64,000 nucleotides of DNA from positions 826,162-890,161 of the forward strand of contig CAVVHT010000009.1 in assembly GCA_963748235.1 (NCBI GenBank), given 5' to 3'. Each line of letters starts with the position of its first letter. The first letter of the stretch is position 1. Position numbers and translations under genes: made by a program. The notes below the pieces were generated by a model that was not told the DNA's origin, did not search any database, and worked only from the letters and a program-made list of their open reading frames with translations. The DNA comes from an uncultured Chloroflexia bacterium (GTDB taxonomy: Bacteria > Chloroflexota > Limnocylindria > Limnocylindrales > CSP1-4). This document shows, one piece after another, positions 20,063 through 29,756 of the stretch.

Positions 20063-21436
20063 CTAGCCCTCCAGCTGGTGCGCAGCCTCGCTGAAGAGGC
20101 CGCCCATCGCGCGCGATGTCGTCGGGAAGGCGGTGATCGTCTGCGCCAGTACCTCGATCCTGGTGCGCGTCTTGATCGCCAGCACGGCCATGTGAATCGC
20201 CTCTGACGCACCCGGGCCGGCGATGAACGCGCCGACGAGCTCGCGCGCGTCGCGGTCGACGACGATCGAAACGTGGCCGGATGCCTCCACCGCCTGGCCC
20301 TTGGCCGTTTCGGCAAGGTCGACCGTCAGCTCGAAGGCATCGATGCCCTTGTCCTTCGCCTGGTCGACCAGCAGTCCGACACCGCCCGTCTCGGGGTCGG
20401 TGTAGACGCAGCGCGGGATTGCCCGGTAGTCGGGCGTGACGTCGTCGCCGAGAGCAATCGCGACTGCCGTCTCGCCCTGGTAGTGCGCGAGGTGGGTGTG
20501 CATCTCGGGACCGGCCGGATCGCCAACGACGTACGTGTCGGGGGCAATGCGCATCTTCTCGTCGGGCGAGACGCGGCCCTTGACGATCTCGACACCGATC
20601 GCATCGAGACCCAGGCCGTCGAGGGGCAGCGTCCGGCCGATCGACAGCATCAGCTCGTGACCCTCGACCGACGTGCCATCGGCGAGCTTGACGACGTGAG
20701 CGCCATCCTTCCCGGCACTGGGCTCGACGCTCTCGGCACGGACGCCGAGGCGCAGCTCGACTCCGTCCGCGCGCAGCCCTTCGGCGATCGCCTCCGAGCT
20801 GCGCGGATGGTCGCGGTCGTTAAGCCGTTTCGGCGACTGGACGAGCGTGACCGGCACGCCATAGCGGGCGAAGACCTGGGCCATCTCGAGCCCGGTCGGG
20901 CCGCCGCCCAGGATGGCCAGGCTGCGCGGCAGGGTCGCGCGTGCTGGTCGCCTCGCGATTGGTCCACGGCTTGACCTGGTCGAGGCCGGGCAGGTCCGGC
21001 ACGGTCGAGCGGCTGCCCACGGCGACGATCAGGTTGCGACCTGTGATCTCGCGCGTGCCGCCGCCCTTGGTCATCTTCACGCGTCACCGCGCCCGGCCCG
21101 ATGATCGTCGCCTCGCCGCGGATCACCTCGGCGCCGGCGTCCTCGAGCCGCTTGACGTGGCCGCTGTCGTCGGGCCAGTCGAGCTTGACGCGGTTGATCA
21201 TGTAGTCGCGGAAGTCGGACGCCCGCGGCCATGCCATAGCCACTGCCCTTGGCGTGCACGGCCGCCGCGTGGAGCAGCGCCTTGGATGGCACGCACGCCC
21301 AGAACGGGCACGAGCCACCGAACAGCTCGCGGTCGATGATCGCCACTGTTGCGCCACGCCGCCGCGCCTCGTGCGCGGCGGCCTCGCCGCCCGCGCCGGC
21401 ACCGACGATGACGAAGTCGAAGTCGGGGCCGCTCAC
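20063..21436 (-). CDS. class I pyridine nucleotide-disulfide oxidoreductase (dihydrolipoamide dehydrogenase / mycothione-reductase-like), about three apparent frameshifts
   Basis: FAD motif DFVIVGAGAGG; redox-active disulfide GGSCPFWACVPSK; NAD motif LAILGGGP (out of frame); C-terminal dimerisation domain with ITAFPTTSRAMGG. Confidence 0.8.
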
Positions 21437-22640
21437 CTCTCCGCGCCGAGCAGCAGCGCGGCAATCAGCGTCGTGCGCGGCACGATCGAGTCGATCTCGA
21501 GGTACTCGCCCGGCGCGTGATCGGCGCCGCCAACTGGGCCGAGGCCGTCGAGCGTCGGCACGCCCATGCCCGACGTCGTGTTCGCGTCGGACGCACCACC
21601 GGTCGCCGCGTCACGCAGCTCGAAGCCCAGCCGAGCGGCGATGTCGATCGCCTGCTCGGCGAGCGCGGCAGTCGCCGGCTTCTTCTCCATGGGCGGCCAG
21701 AAGTGACGCTGCGTCGCGGTTGCCGTCACGTCGGCGACCGTGTTCGTGGCCGCGATCTCCCTGATCGCCGCCTCCACCTCTGCCATCGCCTCGCTCGTCG
21801 TGGCGCGGACGTCGATCTCGAGCTCGGTGCGCTCGGCGACGACGTTCGGCCGCGTGCCGCCGCGCACGACGCCGACGTTGACCGTCACGCCCGGCCAGCG
21901 GCCGTTGAGCGCGTGGAGCGCCAGGATCTTGTGCGCGGCCTCGAGCGTCGAGCTGCTGCCCTTTTCCGGCTCCACTCCTGCATGCGCGGCGCGACCGTCG
22001 ATTCGGATCAGGAAATCGGCGATTCCCTTGCGCGCACTGACGATGTCGCCGTTCTCGCGCGCCGACTCGAGCACGAGCGCAATCGACGCGCCCTCGGCGC
22101 AGCGCCGGATGACGGCAGTGCTCGTCGGCGAGCCGATCTCCTCGTCGGGATTGGCGACGTACACCAGGCGACCGAACGGCAGCCATCGCTGACCGGTGTC
22201 CCGGCCGGGTGGAGAGCGCGCAGCGCCCGCAACGCGTACAGCCCGCCGAGCAGGCCGCCCTTCATGTCGTCGACGCCGGGCCCGTAGGCACGCCCATCGC
22301 GGACGGTGAAAGGACGCTCGGCAACCGTGCCGTCGGCGAAGACCGTGTCGAGGTGGCCGACCAGCAGCGCTCGTGAGCTCCCGGCCCCCTCGAGCTCGCC
22401 GATGACGATGTCGCCGAGCTCGGCGTTGGCCTCGACCGTCACCGCCGCGCCCAGATCGGCCAGCTGATCGGCCATCCAGCGGCCGACCTCGTCGACGCCG
22501 TCCTTGGTGTACGAGCCGCAGTCGATGTTGACCAGTCGCTCGAGATCGGCCATGTAGGCGGGCAGGCTGGCCTCGATGTGGTCGCGCAGCCTGCCGAGCT
22601 CTTCGTCGGTGACCTGCCCGACCGTTGTGTCGATTGCCAT
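21433..22640 (-). CDS. M20 family metallopeptidase (ArgE/DapE/CPG2/Sapep-like), one apparent frameshift near 22200
   Basis: LLVGHLDTVF, GPGVDDMKGG, NPDEEIGSP, EYLEIDSIVPRTTLIAALL. Overlaps the downstream oxidoreductase start by 4 bp. Confidence 0.8.
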
Positions 22641-22680
22641 GTCGGCAGGGTAATCGACCGCCCATATACTCCGCCCCACC

Positions 22681-24530
22681 GTGCGTCTAGTCGAAATCCG
22701 CCTGCTCGACGGCCCGAACATCTATCGGCTGGAGCCGACGGTGCGAATTGAGGTCGTCGTCGGGCGCCGCCGCACCTGGTATGGGCAGCGATCGCCGGGC
22801 AGGCACGCGATCGTCAGGCTCGGCGCGCGCGTGTCGCGGCTTCCGCGGCGCCGTCATCGGTTGCGGAGCTGGCTGGATGGGTGCGCAAGCTTCACCGTCG
22901 CGCGCTCAAGCGAACCGTGCCAGTGACCATCCACCAAACGAGCGAGCCCGGTCGGTGGGTAGTCGCCTATCCGTGGCGCGATGGCAGCCAGGCCGAACTC
23001 ATCGCCCAGGCGGCGTTGCGCCTGACCGATCAGGCGAGCGACCGCCTGCTGGAGCGTGCCGTGCGCCGCATCCGCGACGCGGAGGGCGCCGCACCGCTGT
23101 GGATCACCGATGAGCGACGCCGCGCCGCAAATCCACGTCTGCAGCTGATCTCGGTCAGTGGCACGAACGGCAAGAGCACCACGACCAGGATGATCACCCA
23201 CATTGCCCGCGCCGGCGGCCGTCGCGTGGGCACGACGACGACCGACGGAGTGCTGATCGACGAAGAGATGATCGAGCCAGGTGACTTCAGCGGGCCACAG
23301 GGGGCGCGAGCCGTTATGCGCCACACCGAGGTCGAGGTTGGCGTCCTCGAGACTGCCCGGGGCGGCATCCTGCTGCGCGGCCTGGCGTACGAGTCGAACG
23401 AAGCCAGCGTGCTGACCAACGTCAGCGCCGATCACCTCGACCTGCAGGGTCTGCATACGCTGCCCGAGCTGGCCGAGGTCAAATCGGTCATCTGCCGCGT
23501 CACGCGACCGGAGGGCACGGTCGTGCTCAACGCCGACGATCCGCTGCTGGTGCCGATCGCGCGGCGAGTGCGCGCACCGGTGACCTTCTTCAGCCTCAAT
23601 CCGCGCAGCTCGCGCGTCCGATCGCACGTCGCTCGCGGCGGCACCGCCTTCGTGCTCGACGATGGCTGGATCGTCGAGCTGGCCGGGTCCAAGCGGCGGC
23701 GGATCGTGGCCGCGGCCGAGCTGCCGGCCACTCTCGGCGGGCTGGCGCGGCACAACGTCGCCAACGCGCTCGCCGCCGCCGCTGGTGCGCGGGCGATCGG
23801 CATGTCCTACCGCGCGATCGCCGACGGGCTGCGCGGCTTCCGCAACACGGCCGACCTGATGCCAGGCCGGCTGAACCTGTACCGCAAGGGTGATCGCCTC
23901 GTCGTCGTCGACTATGCGCACAACGAGGCCGGCCTGGCCGCGCTGTTCGACACGATCGAGGGACTCGTCGGCCGGCGTGGCAAGCGGCGCGCCACCGTGA
24001 GCGTGATCATCGGCGCGGCCGGCGATCGCCCGGACGATGCCATGCGCGCCGTCGGCCAGCTGGCCGCGCGGCGCGCCGACGAGGTCGCGATCAAGGAGGA
24101 CCTGCCCTTCCTGCGCGGCCGGACGCGGGCAAGTGCCATCGGCGAGCTGCGCGAGGGCATTCGTGCCGGCGGCACGAACCCCTCCTCGGCGCCGGTGTAC
24201 GAGCTGGAGCTCGATGGCCTGGTCGGCGAGCTGACGACTCCCGGCCGCATGGCCGCCACGGAAGACGGCACGCCGCGCGTGGTGATGCTGATGTGCCACG
24301 CCGAGCGCGACGCGGTCGCGCGCTACCTCGCGGGCGAAGGGTTCGTCGAGGTGGAGGACGTCGGCATCGCTCGGAGCGTTTCGCCCGCAAGCCGGCCTAG
24401 GGACGCCGGCGGTGAACCAGGGCCAGGAAGCCGATCGGCTCACCCTTCGGATCATCGCGCGGCTGGAACTCATCGCCCAGCTCATGGATGCGCCGCCTCA
24501 GCTCGGCCAGGTCGTCGGGTGCGAGCCTGA
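22681..24530 (+). CDS. cyanophycin-synthetase paralogue with N-domain fused directly to the Mur-ligase-like M domain (no ATP-grasp G domain); frameshift near 22870
   Basis: The N-terminus MRLVEIRLLDGPNIYRLEPTVRIEVVV parallels CphA LRILETRVLRGPNIWFRGPAIVMLVDL. TVPVTIHQTSEPGRWVVAYPWRDGSQAELIAQAALRL parallels TVAHIGKTRSAGATGQYNVVYEYREEEVGREAGRIAVAL. The Mur-ligase P-loop ISVSGTNGKSTTTRMI then follows immediately, where cphA has about 330 aa of ATP-grasp. The 3' end overlaps the ArsR gene, so the true end is uncertain. Confidence 0.75.
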
Positions 24531-24918
24531 CCCCGAGTCGAACGGTCGTCAGTGGGGCATCGTCGCCCGCCTCGAGCAGCTCGTCGCGAACGGCGTCGAG
24601 GACAGTCGCGGTGTGATCAGCACTCGGCAGCATCCGGATCTGCCACGACTTGCCCGTGCTGCGGTACGGCCGCTCCACCGAACCGCGCTTGCCGCGACGC
24701 GGCTCATCAGCGACCAGGAACCCACCGCTCACGAGCGCCTTGACGTGATGCAGGATCGTGCCCGGATCGCGGTCCAGCCGCTCGGCGATCTCCTTGTTGG
24801 TCAGCGCCTTGTCGATCGTCAGGCGCAGGATGCGCAGTCGCAGCGGATGACCGAGCGTGCGCATCTCGTCGGCCGTGGCGTCGCGTATCGGTGGCGCTGA
24901 TCGAGCAGTGATGGACAA
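24397..24918 (-). CDS. ArsR/SmtB-family winged-helix transcriptional regulator
   Basis: HPLRLRILRLTIDKALTNKEIAERLDRDPGTILHHVKALVSGGFL. Confidence 0.7.
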   Translation of the reverse strand: MSITARSAPPIRDATADEMRTLGHPLRLRILRLTIDKALTNKEIAERLDRDPGTILHHVKALVSGGFLVADEPRRGKRGSVERPYRSTGKSWQIRMLPSADHTATVLDAVRDELLEAGDDAPLTTVRLGVRLAPDDLAELRRRIHELGDEFQPRDDPKGEPIGFLALVHRRRP

Positions 24919-24936
24919 TTCCCCACTAGTGGACTA

Positions 24937-26080
24937 TTGTCCATCATTATGACATCACGACGTCCGCTCGGTTGGCTTGCCATCACTTCCATCACCGCTC
25001 TGGCCATCGTCGGGTGCGCCGGTGGCGCCGCTCCGACGCCGCCCGACTGCCCCCGACACTCACCGCAACGCGCGAGCGCGACGACTGAGCCGACCGAGAC
25101 GGCCACTCCTACCGATCAGCCCTCCCCGACCGGCACTCCCGCTGCGACCGCCACGGCGGCCCCGACCGACACTCCCGCGCCATCCGATTCGCCGTCGGCA
25201 ACGGCCACGGCACGGGCCAACGCTACCGACACGCCGGCCGGCGCATCGCCTGCGATCCAGGTCGGCACCGGGCCGATCGGCATCGTCGCGACCGAGGACG
25301 CCATCTGGGTCGCGACCTTCTACGACGGTGAGCTGGTGCGGATCGACCCCGAGACGATGACGGTCACCGACAACGTGCCCGTCGGCGACGGAGCGATCGG
25401 CGTGGCGTACGCCGTCGGGTCATTGTGGGTGGCCACTCACCTCACCGGTGAGCTCGTGCGCGTCGATCCCGAGACGCGCGAGGTCACGGCGCGAATCGAG
25501 GTCGGCGCCGAGCCCGAAGGCGTCTGCGGCGACGACGGCCAGGTGTGGGTGACGAGCGAGGCGGCCGGAGGCGCTGTTCGCATCGATCCCGAAACGAACG
25601 AGGTCGTGACCAGCGTGGCGGTCGGCCGCGCGCCGCGTCACTGCGGAGTCGGCTTCGGTTCGGTGTGGGTGACCAACTGGGGCTCGGCGACCATGACGCG
25701 CATCGATTCGGAATCGAACGAGGTGATCGAGACGATCGGGCTCCATTTCGGTCCCGAGGGGCTGGCCTTCACCGACACCGGCGTGTGGGTGGCCAACCAG
25801 ACCGCCGGCTCGGTCTCGCTGGTCGATCCCGAGACCAACGAGGAAACGACCGAGATCCAGATCGGCATGCTGCCCGAGGGCATCGCGATCGGCGACGACG
25901 GACTCGTCTGGGCGGCCACGACCCAGCTCGATCACATCGAGGGCGATCGATCCGGAGTCGGGCGAGATCGTCGAGACCCTCGAGACCGGCAACGAGCCAC
26001 GCCGCATCGTCATCGTCGACGGTCAGGCGTGGGTCACCAACACCGGTGCCGGCACGGTCTCGGTAATCCCGCTCGACTGA
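24937..26080 (+). CDS. lipoprotein with YVTN-type beta-propeller repeats (YncE-like); frameshift near 25930
   Basis: Lipobox LAIVGCAG, a PT-rich linker, then seven or more repeats of the form G..P.G.A......VWV.N...G.V.RIDPET.EV. Confidence 0.65.
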
Positions 26081-26086
26081 GGCGGG

Positions 26087-28902
26087 TTAGCCCTCTTCGA
26101 CCTCGAACTCGCCCGGGTGGGCGATGGCGCTGCCGCCGCCCTTGCGCCGCACTTCTTCCATCACCTGGCGGTAGGCGCCGGTGATGTCGTCGCTGCAGAC
26201 CATGACGAGATCGCCCGGGGTCGCCTGGGCCATGCCCGTCGTGACCGCGGCCATCTCGTCGGTGACTATCGAAGCCGTGGCACAGCGGCCACCCTCGCGT
26301 TGCGCCTTGCTCACGCCGGCCAGGACCAGATCGGCCGACTCACCCGGCTTGCGGCCGCGTAGCTTCTTGTCCTCGCGCACGACGATCGTGTCGAAGGCAT
26401 GGCCGGCCAATCGGCCGTACTCGCGGTGGTCGTCGTCGCGTCGGTCGCCGGGAATGCCGATCACGCCGATCGCGGTGCCGCGCCTGCCGCCGGACCCACC
26501 GTCGACCGCAGGGCTGCCGCGCTGGGCGGCCGCATCATGAGCTCGACGAACTCGGTCAGCCTGCGCATGCCATCGACGTTGTGGCAGTAATCGAGGAAGA
26601 CCTTGTAGCCGTCGACCTGGATCTCGTTGAGCCGGCCGGGTGCCTGGAAGAACGACGTGGTGAAGGTGCGCAAGCCCTGGCGGATGTCGTGCAGGTGCGC
26701 ACCGGCGGCCCACGCTGCACCGGCCGCGGCGAGCGCGTTGGCCACGTTCATCCGCGCGCGGCCCTCGAAAGTGGCCGGGATCTGGTGCGTGTAGAGCAGC
26801 GGCATCGTGCGCTCGGCGTGGCGCAGCACGACCAGCTCGCCGTCGTCGGTCTGCTGCACGACCATCGCCGCGCCGCCGCGGCCGCAGTGGCCGTCGACCC
26901 GGTCGTAGCCCTCCTCGCCGCGTTCGCGGGCCATCGAGAAGTAGACGACGCTGCCGCGGCTCTGGCGGGCCATCCGCGCGACAAGCGGATCGTCGGCATT
27001 GAGCACGGCCATGCCCGCGCGCGGCACGGCATCGACGATGACCGACTTGACCTGCGCCAGCTGGCTCATCGTCTCGACGCCGTTCAGCCCGAGGTGGTCG
27101 CCGGTGACGTTGGTCACGACGGCGACGTCGTTGCGGTCGTAGCCGAGCCCCTCGCGCAGGATGCCGCCGCGCGCGACCTCGAACACCGCCGTGTCGACCG
27201 ATGGGTTCTGGAGCACCATCTGCGCCGAGCGCGGGCCGGACATGTCGCCCTTCCGGATGAGCCGGCCGTCGACGACGATGCCGTCGGTCGTGGTCATGCC
27301 CACCCGACGGCCCATCAGCTTCAGGATGTGGCCGATCATCCGCACCGTCGTCGTCTTGCCGTTGGTGCCGGTCACCCAGATGATCGGGATTCGCGCGTTC
27401 GAGCCCTGCGGGAAGAGCAGGTCGAGGACCGGCTTGGCGACGTACTGCGGCTCGCCCTCGGTCGGATTGGTGTGCATCCGGAAGCCCGGCGCGGCGTTGA
27501 CCTCGACGATCGCCCCGCCCTGCTCGCGAACGGGCACGGTGATGTCGGGCGCGATGAAGTCGATCCCGGCGATGTCCAGCCCGACCACCTGCGCGGCGGT
27601 CTCGGCAATCTCGACGTTGTCGGGATGCGCCTCGTGCGTCCGATCGATGGCCGTGCCGCCGGTCGACATGTTGCCCGTCGCGGCGAGCATCACCCGCTGG
27701 CCCTTCTTGGGCACGTCGTCGAGCCCCAGGCCCTGCTTGCGAACCAGCTCTTCCGCGCCGGCCGTGATGCGGATCCGCGTCAGCACGCGCTCGTGACCGA
27801 TGCCGCGCCGCGGGTCGCTGTTCTCCTTGTCGACCAGCGCGCGGACGCTGAGCTTGCCGTCGCCCACGACACTCGCCGGCACTCGTTCGGCGACCGCGGC
27901 CAGCTTGCCGCCGACGACGAGCACGCGATAGTCGTTGCCGCGCACGAAGGTCTCGACGACGACGTCGCCGCCGCGGCTCTCCTCGCGCGCCAGCGTGTAC
28001 GCGTCGCGGACGGCCTGCTCGTCGCGCAGGTCGAGGGCCACGCCGCGCCCGTGGTTGCCGTCGAGCGGCTTGACGACGACCGGGTAGCCGAGCTTCTCGG
28101 CCGCTTCGACGGCGCCGTCGGCCGAGCGCACGACCTGCGAGCGCGGCACGGGCATGCCGGCCGAGCTGAGCAGCGTGTTGGTCAGGCTCTTGTCGGAGGC
28201 GATGTCGACACCGATCGCCGACGTGCGCGAGGTCATCGTCGCCCGGATGCGCTGCTGGTGGACGCCCTGCCCGAGCTGAACAAGGCTGTGCCGGTCGAGC
28301 CGGATCCACGGGATGTCGCGCGAAACGGCCTCGTCGACGAGCGCCTGGGTCGACGGCCCGAACGCGTTCCGCTCGGCGAGCCGGATCAGCCCCTCGAGCT
28401 CATCGGCGAAGTCGAACGGCGCCGCCTCGGGGTTGACGAGGAAGTTGACGAGCGCGACCGCGATCCGGCCGGCCTCGCGGCCGACCTCCTCCTCGCGATA
28501 CTCGTAGACGACGTTGTACTGGCCCGTTGCGCCCGCCGAGCGCGTCTTGCCGATATGGGCGACGGTGCCGGCCAGGCTCTGCAGCTCGAGCGCGATGTGC
28601 TCGCTGACGTGGCCCAGCCACGTCCCATCATTGAGCCGGGTGACGAAGCCGCCGCGGCGGCCGAGCGAGCAGGCGTGGTCCTCGAGCGACGGGATGAGCT
28701 GCAGCAGCGCCTCGTTGAAGTGCGGGATCTTGTTGCTCGGCCACTCCTCGAGCTCGCCCAGGTCGACGAGCATCACGATTGCCGGGCCGCGGAACCAGAT
28801 GTTCGGACCGCGCAGCACGCGCGTCTCGAGGATGCGCAGTGTCGGCTGGGGCCCTTGGGACTGCCCTTGGGTCTTCCGTCGCGGTGCTGCGGCTTTCGCC
28901 AT
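26087..28902 (-). CDS. cphA: cyanophycin synthetase (N + ATP-grasp + Mur-ligase domains); frameshift near 26500
   Basis: N domain LRGPNIW; ATP-grasp PVVVKPLDGNHGRGV; M-domain P-loop IIWVTGTNGKTTT; C-terminal tail GVIGIPGDRRDDD...DLVMVCSDDITGAYRQVMEEV recovered in a second frame. The start is probably a little downstream of 28902. Confidence 0.9.
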
Positions 28903-28919: not shown

Positions 28920-29756
28920 TCAGCTGGACGCGAGCGAGTCGGCGTCGAGCGCGCGCAGCATCGGCGCCGCTACCCGCTCTCGACTTTCCAGGTCGAAACG
29001 GTAGCCGCTCGGCAGCGAGTGGAGCCGGACGTTGCTGATCATCAGCGGACGATGCGCCTTGACCTCCCAGGCGTCGGTCTCGGAGTCGGCGCCGTCGACG
29101 ATCGTCACGCTGCGCCGGCCGATGACCTCGAGCACGCGGTCAGGTCCGACCACGCCCGCGGTGTCCTCGTCGATGCCGATCCCGAGCAGCGACGGGTTCT
29201 GGGCGATGATCGCCAGCAGCCGCCCGAGCCGATTTCGCTGCTCGAAGTGCTGGTCGATGATCACGCCGGGCAGGATGCCCAGGCCGGCCGCCATCTGGAC
29301 CATGCGCTGCTTCGGCGTCGCGCCACTTGCCCCGAATGCGACCATGTGCGTGCTCATCGCGGAGGCGCCCGCGCTCGTGCCAGCCACTACGGCGCCTTCG
29401 CGGTGGCGCCGAACAATGGCCTGGGCGAGCGGCGTGCCGCCGATCATGGACGACAGGCGCAGCTGATTGCCGCCGGTCAGGAAGATGCCCGTCGCATCGC
29501 TCACCGAGCGGACGGAGGTCGGCTCGGCACATTGCGCGCGAGTGGTGGTGTGGATCGGGTAGACATCGCTCGCGCCCAGCTCGGTGAAGATCCGCCGGTA
29601 CATCTCGCCGGCCAGCGGGCCGAGCGACGAAGCGGCGCTGATTACCGCGATGCGCGCGTCCGGGCCGCCGGCAAGCCGAATGAAGCGCGCCAGGATGACA
29701 CGCTCCCGGACCTTGTCTTCCGCGCCACCAATGATGATGACATGCCCCTCGGTCAT
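28920..29756 (-). CDS. cphB: cyanophycinase (peptidase S51)
   Basis: VIIIGGAEDK; catalytic-serine region VAGTSAGASAM; ILPGVIIDQHFEQRNRLGRLL. Immediately upstream of cphA on the same strand. Confidence 0.9.
   Translation of the reverse strand: MTEGHVIIIGGAEDKVRERVILARFIRLAGGPDARIAVISAASSLGPLAGEMYRRIFTELGASDVYPIHTTTRAQCAEPTSVRSVSDATGIFLTGGNQLRLSSMIGGTPLAQAIVRRHREGAVVAGTSAGASAMSTHMVAFGASGATPKQRMVQMAAGLGILPGVIIDQHFEQRNRLGRLLAIIAQNPSLLGIGIDEDTAGVVGPDRVLEVIGRRSVTIVDGADSETDAWEVKAHRPLMISNVRLHSLPSGYRFDLESRERVAAPMLRALDADSLASS

Follow-up and report, generated by a model that had tools for sequence, protein, structure and literature searches.

The window, a stretch of 64,000 nucleotides of contig CAVVHT010000009.1 from an uncultured Chloroflexia bacterium, encodes a paralogue of cyanophycin synthetase in which a CphA-type N domain is joined, without any ATP-grasp (G) domain in between, to a complete M domain of the Mur-ligase type. 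Cyanophycin synthesis is at present explained by the three-domain synthetase CphA1 together with CphA2, a recycler from cyanobacteria. As judged from sequence comparisons, the protein, hereafter N+M, belongs to a large, old, multi-phylum family of about 520-610 residues. Its gene is a recurrent component of clusters containing cphA1 and the cyanophycinase gene cphB and is thereby genetically tied to cyanophycin metabolism. The conserved motifs and gene context make it probable, on balance, that N+M is an active G-less ligase of the CphA family, which would perform ATP-dependent isopeptide ligation in trans on a cyanophycin-type substrate as an accessory to CphA1.

The only Pfam families recognised in the N+M protein were Mur_ligase_M (residues 158-367) and Mur_ligase_C (residues 395-475). 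None of the ATP-grasp families was matched at E<=0.01, whereas the product of the neighbouring cphA1 matched nine. The P-loop begins at residue 161, about 160 residues after the start, and no domain is hidden in or collapsed out of this space since homologues of 556-606 residues align from end to end. Assembly collapse of the G domain was considered and rejected, as the same layout recurs in many assemblies made independently, among them finished genomes of cultured bacteria. These results agree with a sequence-only reading of the same DNA, which had announced an N domain, a full M domain and no ATP-grasp, with the P-loop some 157 residues after the start and no room for anything else; Pfam, a PDB profile search and structure comparison all led to this layout. 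That reading had also asked for a domain search to confirm the absence of an ATP-grasp, and had envisaged that the G domain might have collapsed out of the assembly or that the protein might be a generic Mur ligase with spurious N-terminal similarity. The domain search matched no ATP-grasp, the 518 related stretches and the complete genomes (see below) showed no collapse, and the M domain was far closer to CphA1, with an N-domain homology that is genuine by profile and fold.

The relationship with CphA1 was clearest for the M domain. In the PDB, a profile of 40 family members retrieved the CphA1 M domain (7TXV/7LG5, residues 486-844) with an E value of 2e-100, the next matches being MurE-like chains at 8e-23. 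Likewise, the NCBIfam cyanophycin synthetase model TIGR02068 gave 387 bits, below its cutoff of 850 and with a match confined to profile positions 477-834, and the MurE model gave 114 bits against a cutoff of 373. The N+M and neighbouring CphA1 M domains were 40-45% identical. When 65 divergent N+M representatives were compared with 36 CphA1 M domains, 45 columns displayed the same residue at a conservation of at least 90% in both groups. These columns include GTNGK, E224 (a Mg ligand), ARGG, N247, D251-H252, K268 and N284/D287, as well as R397 (in PGR), H414 (in DxxHN), GDR and RGR. The Mg-ligand threonine T187 was invariant inside the window protein's own family, and K165, T187, E224, D251, H252, R397 and H414 were invariant or nearly so in the N+M family. 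The lysine, threonine and glutamate of these motifs match the ATP/Mg ligands K499/T522/E558 of TeCphA1, and R397/H414 its ATP-phosphate contacts R731/H748 (PMC9427784). D251-H252 are the equivalents of the SuCphA1 residues whose mutation (D585A/H586A) kills the M domain (PMC9262961). Between the same 65 and 36 sequences, no column was found to be conserved with a different residue in each group. The catalytic machinery has thus been kept, while some substrate-facing positions may have been released or retuned, five CphA1-conserved columns being variable in N+M (see below).

Conservation was much more relaxed in the N domain. Pfam PF18921 matched neither the whole protein nor any of 25 isolated family N regions, and no other meaningful N-terminal Pfam match appeared in either; profile and structure methods were therefore used for this part. 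The pairwise match to the neighbouring CphA1 was limited to 39 residues at 33% identity (E 3e-4). Comparison by hhalign of the family N regions with local CphA1 N domains gave 77.7% (E 1.9e-5), and the use of diverse profiles (64 N+M against 26 CphA1 sequences) gave 96.6% (E 5.6e-10), colinear over 119 columns. A Foldseek search with the predicted N-domain fold returned CphA1 or CphA2 in all of its top 13 matches and no other good match in the PDB. The sequence-only reading had claimed "strong positional matches" with the nearby cphA; this held as far as homology is concerned (hhalign and fold), but not as regards pairwise strength.

Members of the family share an invariant LDGPNxY loop and a TSEPGxW strand in this domain, the former being the most conserved N-terminal element. 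In CphA1 it corresponds to a loop (Y14/I17) for which packing onto the M domain has been reported (PMC9262961); this suggests, by analogy, that the N-M interface is preserved in N+M. The helix carrying the Cx19HxxEH peptidase motif was missing from the N domain in the profile alignment. This motif is the inverzincin site of most CphA1s (PMC9262961); it occurs in 83% of them and is therefore not strictly defining. A basic loop, GRRRTWYGQRxP (positions 22762-22797, residues 28-39), was invariant in the Limnocylindria branch of the family only. It is disordered in the structure model (predicted local distance difference test score, pLDDT, below 50) and could be a binder of an acidic ligand such as un-arginylated poly-Asp. 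In another member (P0166, 573 residues), Pfam DUF4938 (PF16292) matched residues 4-273 with an E value of 5e-29; this model seems to cover the N domain and the start of the M-domain core (Mcore) in part of the family.

As assembled, the N+M gene is split over two open reading frames (ORFs; Table 1). The GTG at 22681 opens an ORF of 81 codons, the protein beginning with VRLVEIRLLDGPNIYRLEP... / VRLVEIRLLDGPNIYRLEPTVRIEVVVGRRRTWYGQRSPGRHAIVRLGARV..., and the second ORF holds the remainder, including the P-loop ISVSGTNGKSTTTRMI. The reference for calling indels was L001, the nearest of the relatives fetched, with a DNA identity of about 90%. Besides the frameshift near 22830, four further indels were recorded at about 24350-24398, within the final 60 nt of the gene. 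They removed its native stop, and the corrected stop is the TAG at 24398-24400 instead of the end at 24530 given by the sequence-only reading. The corrected protein ends with ...FRPQAG* and its L001 orthologue (571 residues) with ...GFRPKPG*. Once the frames were joined near 22830, more than 100 database proteins in the above size range could be aligned with the product from one end to the other, at 59-72% identity and over 91-99% of the length. The corrected frame displayed zero in-frame stops, and the ratios of nonsynonymous to synonymous substitution rates (dN/dS) against three orthologues were 0.13-0.36 for both the N and the M part, indicating purifying selection.

Such lesions were not restricted to this gene. 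Using tblastn with intact proteins of the related locus L002, frameshifts were found in 5 of 7 consecutive local genes tested, about eight in 10 kb (positions 20066-26540). Frame changes affected the M20 peptidase (around 22200), beta-propeller (around 25940) and cphA1 (around 26500) genes, and three or four of them were located by the same comparison in a MerA-like oxidoreductase gene (20930-21450). The contigs related to the window are long-read-style metagenome-assembled genomes (MAGs) from soil. Because neighbouring genes carry the same type of lesion and the related contigs are of this kind, the indels in the N+M gene are probably assembly errors and not decay. The contig appears to stem from an error-prone (long-read) assembly, and the dense frameshifts make ORF-based annotation of the window unreliable.

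The family is broadly distributed. A one-genome-per-species scan uncovered 518 stretches encoding relatives of the N+M protein. The 80 best were fetched, all of them Candidatus Limnocylindria / Chloroflexota MAGs, and DNA synteny with the window was confirmed for the five closest of these. When 1.84 billion cluster representatives were searched exhaustively with the profile, 24,527 matches were obtained. Among the best 150 representatives (50%-identity clusters), 73 displayed the N+M layout, defined as 500-680 residues with the P-loop at residue 120-260, and 25 were CphA1-like. The phyla concerned are Chloroflexota and Actinomycetota, plus metagenomic lineages with relatives annotated as Myxococcota and Acidobacteriota. 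Members occur in the complete genomes of the cultured Nakamurella antarctica and Nocardioides dongkuii, and others were annotated from Myxococcota and Thermoanaerobaculia MAGs. The gene is contained in 628319-648022 of CP034170.1 in N. antarctica and in 2278327-2298018 of CP059903.1 in N. dongkuii. The survey of N+M-only homologues suggested by the sequence-only reading thus confirmed recurrent cphA1-cphB neighbours, and revealed a large multi-phylum family instead of a one-off.

In a neighbour-joining tree of M domains, 65 of 81 N+M sequences (the 73 representatives, the window protein and seven close homologues) formed a group from which all 36 CphA1s were excluded. Over bootstraps, the largest pure N+M group holding the window protein contained a median of 64 of the 81 members. 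The tree was left unrooted because no Mur-ligase outgroup was present among the 1.6 Mb of fetched loci. The 16 other G-less sequences fell among the CphA1s. With the profile of the CphA1 N domain, nine of the 16 gave colinear matches of 45 to 220 bits that extended some 40 residues into the G domain. Pfam PF18921 was reached by at least three of those grouping with CphA1, and such sequences can be solitary. These canonical-N proteins (Table 1) are, on sequence grounds, probably separate and more recent deletions of the ATP-grasp core.

The genomic context was nearly constant. Among those of the 80 fetched loci that had enough flanking DNA, a divergent M20 gene lay immediately upstream of the N+M gene in 64 of 66, and in 41 of 43 a full cphA1 followed by cphB was located downstream at a distance of up to 10 kb. 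Spacings from 454 to 8793 nt separated N+M from cphA1. The cphA1 orthologue in L002 scored 1145 bits with TIGR02068, above the 850-bit cutoff. In other lineages, linkage to full-length cphA1 and cphB was recorded in five further contexts, with varying organization. The context of a divergent member consisted of N+M, thioesterase, cphB and cphA1 genes. Operon-like arrays contained an Amidohydro_1 (IadA-like) gene, cphB, cphA1 and N+M, the start of N+M overlapping the stop of cphA1. An Antricoccus MAG displayed M20 divergent from N+M and cphA1 convergent with it, and in N. antarctica and N. dongkuii N+M was convergent with cphA1-cphB. Ten partner CphA1s were checked for motifs. They retained HxxEH and KPLDGNHGRG, and few if any of the M-domain motifs sought were missing; the catalytic P-loop, ExARGG, DH and DxxHN motifs were seen in all ten. 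Compensation by N+M for a defective CphA1 M domain was rejected: since the catalytic motifs of the partners are intact, N+M is not a stand-in for a broken domain.

Table 1. Features of the N+M locus and of three canonical-N G-less CphA proteins. Coordinates refer to the window unless a locus is given.
Feature	Coordinates	Strand	Evidence or remark
M20 metallopeptidase, glutamate-carboxypeptidase-like	21433..22640	-	Divergent, 40 bp upstream of N+M; Pfam Peptidase_M20 and M20_dimer
G-less cyanophycin-synthetase paralogue (N+M)	22681..24400	+	About 570 residues after indel correction
N+M gene as assembled	ORFs 22681-22926 and 22881-24530	+	Different frames
Diverged CphA-type N domain	22681..23120	+	Residues 1 to about 145
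Frameshift site of N+M gene	22829..22836	+	2-nt insertion relative to L001 in GCGCGCGTGT run; frame change between the ORFs
Mcore, ATP-binding Mur-ligase middle domain	23121..23850	+	Pfam Mur_ligase_M, E 7.5e-22
Mcore motifs	GTNGKST 23160-23180; TTTDG 23235-23249; LETARGG 23346-23366; DH motif in SADHLDL 23424-23444; LNADD 23526-23540	+	
Mlid, Mur-ligase C-terminal domain	23851..24400	+	Pfam Mur_ligase_C
Mlid motifs	PGRLN 23862-23876; DYAHN 23910-23924; GAAGDRPDD 24012-24038; KEDLPFLRGR 24093-24122	+	
Indel cluster, 3' end of N+M gene	24350..24400	+	Three-frame translation; pairwise DNA alignment with L001
ArsR-type regulator	24397-24918	-	Pfam, NCBIfam
YVTN-type beta-propeller protein	24937 to about 26070	+	Frameshifted; Pfam, NCBIfam
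Full-length cphA1 (N+G+M)	26087..28902	-	Convergent with N+M; PF18921, ATP-grasp families and Mur_ligase_M
cphB cyanophycinase (peptidase S51)	28920..29756	-	Pfam Peptidase_S51; L002 orthologue TIGR02069 1e-81
Canonical-N G-less CphA proteins	P0188 (L086:8001-9851); P0206 (L084:1431-3230); P0253 (L087:972-2795)		599-616 residues

Some features of this context are peripheral to the N+M protein. The ArsR and beta-propeller genes form an insert (24397-26070) between N+M and cphA1 in the window and in L002. Compared with L001, the insert gave no alignment by blastn and only a 24-residue ArsR fragment by tblastn. Given this absence from the L001 alignment, the insert is variable and probably lies outside the conserved core of the cluster. 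The M20 neighbour scored 297 bits with NCBIfam PRK06133, against a cutoff of 349. As it holds the position occupied by IadA-like genes in other clusters, it may, by analogy, be a candidate beta-Asp-Arg dipeptidase, perhaps an unrecognised one; the known dedicated enzyme of this type, CphZ, is an M14 peptidase (PMC9974463). A lone sigma-70-like promoter match (TCGGCA-17-TATACT, 22642-22670, plus strand; 0.1 expected by chance) was located just 5' of the GTG, where it overlaps the beginning of the coding region of the divergent M20 gene (ATG 22640-22638). Scans of the window for tRNAs and Rfam families gave no matches.

The activity that we propose for N+M would follow the chemistry of the CphA1 M domain. 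The enzyme would phosphorylate a carboxylate with ATP and then link it, by an isopeptide bond, to the alpha-amine of an amino acid, either arginine or one resembling it. The likeliest carboxylate would be the beta-carboxylate of an aspartate ending a cyanophycin-type chain, so that N+M might complete Asp-terminated chains or short primers released by CphA1, or otherwise modify the side-chain layer. The N domain would probably serve as a scaffold or substrate-holding module placed against Mcore, and not as a peptidase. Action in trans, as an accessory to CphA1, is proposed because an enzyme devoid of the G domain would not extend the aspartate backbone. In its simplest version, the role would be arginylation of Asp-terminated chains or short primers; initiation and a changed donor or acceptor stay alive as variants.

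Several observations weigh against this proposal. The substrate and product are putative, being deduced from conserved motifs and gene context. The partner CphA1s have intact M domains, next to which a duplicate arginine-adding activity seems redundant; a distinct substrate or a non-redundant step is therefore favoured. At five positions that CphA1s conserve, N+M proteins vary (T537, R583, Y772, E835 and D836 in the numbering of the window CphA1, E835/D836 being an acidic pair in the M-domain lid, Mlid), and for this reason the amino-acid or acceptor specificity may differ from that of CphA1. The N domain is so diverged, with no PF18921 match and no HxxEH segment, that it may not tether the polymer in the way CphA1 does. 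At the level of the tree, the exact N+M split obtained a bootstrap value of only 21%. Finally, decay of the frameshifted copy in this one genome is formally possible.

Two other catalytic roles were weighed against accessory ligation. Initiation of cyanophycin synthesis, by making beta-Asp-Arg or by arginylating the first Asp-ended oligomers, proceeds through slow steps (PMC9262961), and N+M might be an initiator or primer synthetase supplying primers to CphA1. Loss of HxxEH and of much of the CphA1 N-domain sequence would fit an enzyme with no need to handle long polymers, as would co-location, and sometimes translational coupling, with cphA1. Yet, the partner CphA1s keep the primer-generating Cx19HxxEH site, which provides primer independence once a first chain exists, and N+M displays no sequence feature specific for small substrates; we regard a dedicated initiator as unlikely. 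The enzyme could instead add an amino acid other than arginine, or act on another carboxylate such as the free alpha-carboxylates of the arginine side chains, and so yield a modified or capped polymer. A competent CphA1 is always present, and the fact that another M-type ligase is under selection in several phyla suggests non-redundant chemistry; the variability of R583 and of the acidic pair and the invariant basic loop GRRRTWYGQR point in the same direction. However, the absence of any column conserved with a different residue leaves no clear specificity switch, and the window protein's family keeps K-E-D...RGR as CphA1 does. We give such a decorating or capping role a small chance.

The remaining explanations dispense with a cyanophycin ligase altogether. 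A structural or regulatory partner, binding CphA1 or cyanophycin granules without catalysis, would have a precedent in CphA2, where the N domain is inactive and the M domain truncated and inactive (PMC10273328), and would suit the members translationally coupled to cphA1. This is very improbable, since the M domain is full length and the residues related to ATP, Mg and catalysis are at least 90% conserved over the 65 divergent representatives, which is unexpected for an inactive scaffold. The same motif conservation and the purifying selection also disfavour the "regulatory remnant" listed among the options of the sequence-only reading. An artefact, be it a collapsed G domain or a decaying cphA1 duplicate, would account for the frameshift and the four 3' indels of the window copy, but hardly for a G-less layout shared by hundreds of assemblies of independent origin, some of them finished genomes from cultured bacteria, for the dN/dS values and stop-free corrected frame or for the similar frameshifts of housekeeping-type neighbours; this explanation retains next to no credibility. 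Nor do we attach more than minimal probability to a generic Mur ligase (of peptidoglycan, folate or other metabolism) with a fortuitous N-terminal extension, considering that the M domain is far nearer to CphA1 (2e-100 against 8e-23; 387 against 114 bits), that the N region folds as a CphA and not a MurE-type N domain and that synteny with cphA1-cphB is conserved across phyla.

Going beyond accessory ligation, N+M might represent a third functional class next to CphA1 and CphA2, namely an isopeptide ligase of M type that stands alone, is conserved beside cphA1-cphB in at least four phyla and carries out a step that CphA1 performs inefficiently. We advance this only tentatively and hold it to be possible rather than probable. 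Candidate steps would be de novo primer formation, or the addition or capping of residues with effects on composition, chain length or degradability. A selected and catalytically intact N+M in cphA1-cphB clusters would in any case imply an unrecognised step, whether initiation, repair, side-chain diversification or capping. If this is true, many soil bacteria make cyanophycin with a two-enzyme system, perhaps one whose product is chemically unlike the textbook polymer, with a bearing on nitrogen storage in abundant soil bacteria and on the primer problem of CphA1. Such an enzyme could also aid the engineering of cyanophycin variants and yields, and with Nakamurella and Nocardioides there are cultured hosts in which the question can be addressed directly.

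The family is already present in databases but appears to be uncharacterised. Its members carry the labels "cyanophycin synthetase", "Mur ligase family protein" and "UDP-N-acetylmuramyl tripeptide synthase", so that cphA and murE-like genes are overcounted. No description of the architecture was found in the searchable literature, in line with the sequence-only reading, whose author knew of none. The one possible trace comes from a metatranscriptome study of the Tetrasphaera MAGs TET1 and TET2, in which two serial cphA genes by cphB were noted, the "shorter copy of cphA" being less expressed and left unanalysed (PMC10687191). This shorter copy may be a member of the N+M family, in which case it would be evidence of expression; the cluster of N. 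dongkuii (L089) resembles the Tetrasphaera one and includes a serB-like gene.

Compared with known systems, N+M belongs to the Mur-ligase superfamily in the broad sense (Mur_ligase_M and Mur_ligase_C are present). Yet, its similarity to MurE, MurC/D/F, FolC, MurT and the pseudomurein pMur ligases is far lower than to CphA1, the UDP-MurNAc-binding N-terminal domain of MurE type was not matched, and its context is made of cyanophycin genes instead of a cell-wall (dcw) cluster. The canonical-N G-less CphA proteins P0188, P0206 and P0253 likewise combine N and M without the ATP-grasp core. Unlike the N+M family, they have a canonical N domain that PF18921 recognises, followed by about 40 residues from the beginning of G (P0206 also keeps C...HxxEH), they group with CphA1, and on the contigs seen they did not lie beside cphA1.

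With CphA1 (PDB 7LG5, 7WAC, 7LGM), N+M shares the N-domain fold, a complete Mcore and Mlid, the gene cluster and the P-loop, Mg ligands, DH pair, PGR, DxxHN, GDR and RGR. It differs by a highly diverged N domain without Cx19HxxEH, by variable residues at R583, E835 and D836 and, above all, by the absence of the G domain of about 330 residues, which leaves no extension of the poly-Asp backbone; lacking this domain and scoring below the TIGR02068 cutoff, it falls outside CphA1. In CphA1, the G domain also accounts for much of the tetramerisation. CphA2 (PDB 7TA5, 8FXH) is defined by an active G domain and a truncated, inactive M domain (PMC10273328) and is a specialised enzyme of cyanobacteria (PMC9262961), whereas N+M was seen in other phyla. 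With no G domain and a full-length M domain whose motifs are intact, N+M does not belong to CphA2 either, but forms its mirror image: the former keeps M and lacks G, the latter keeps G and has lost a functional M.

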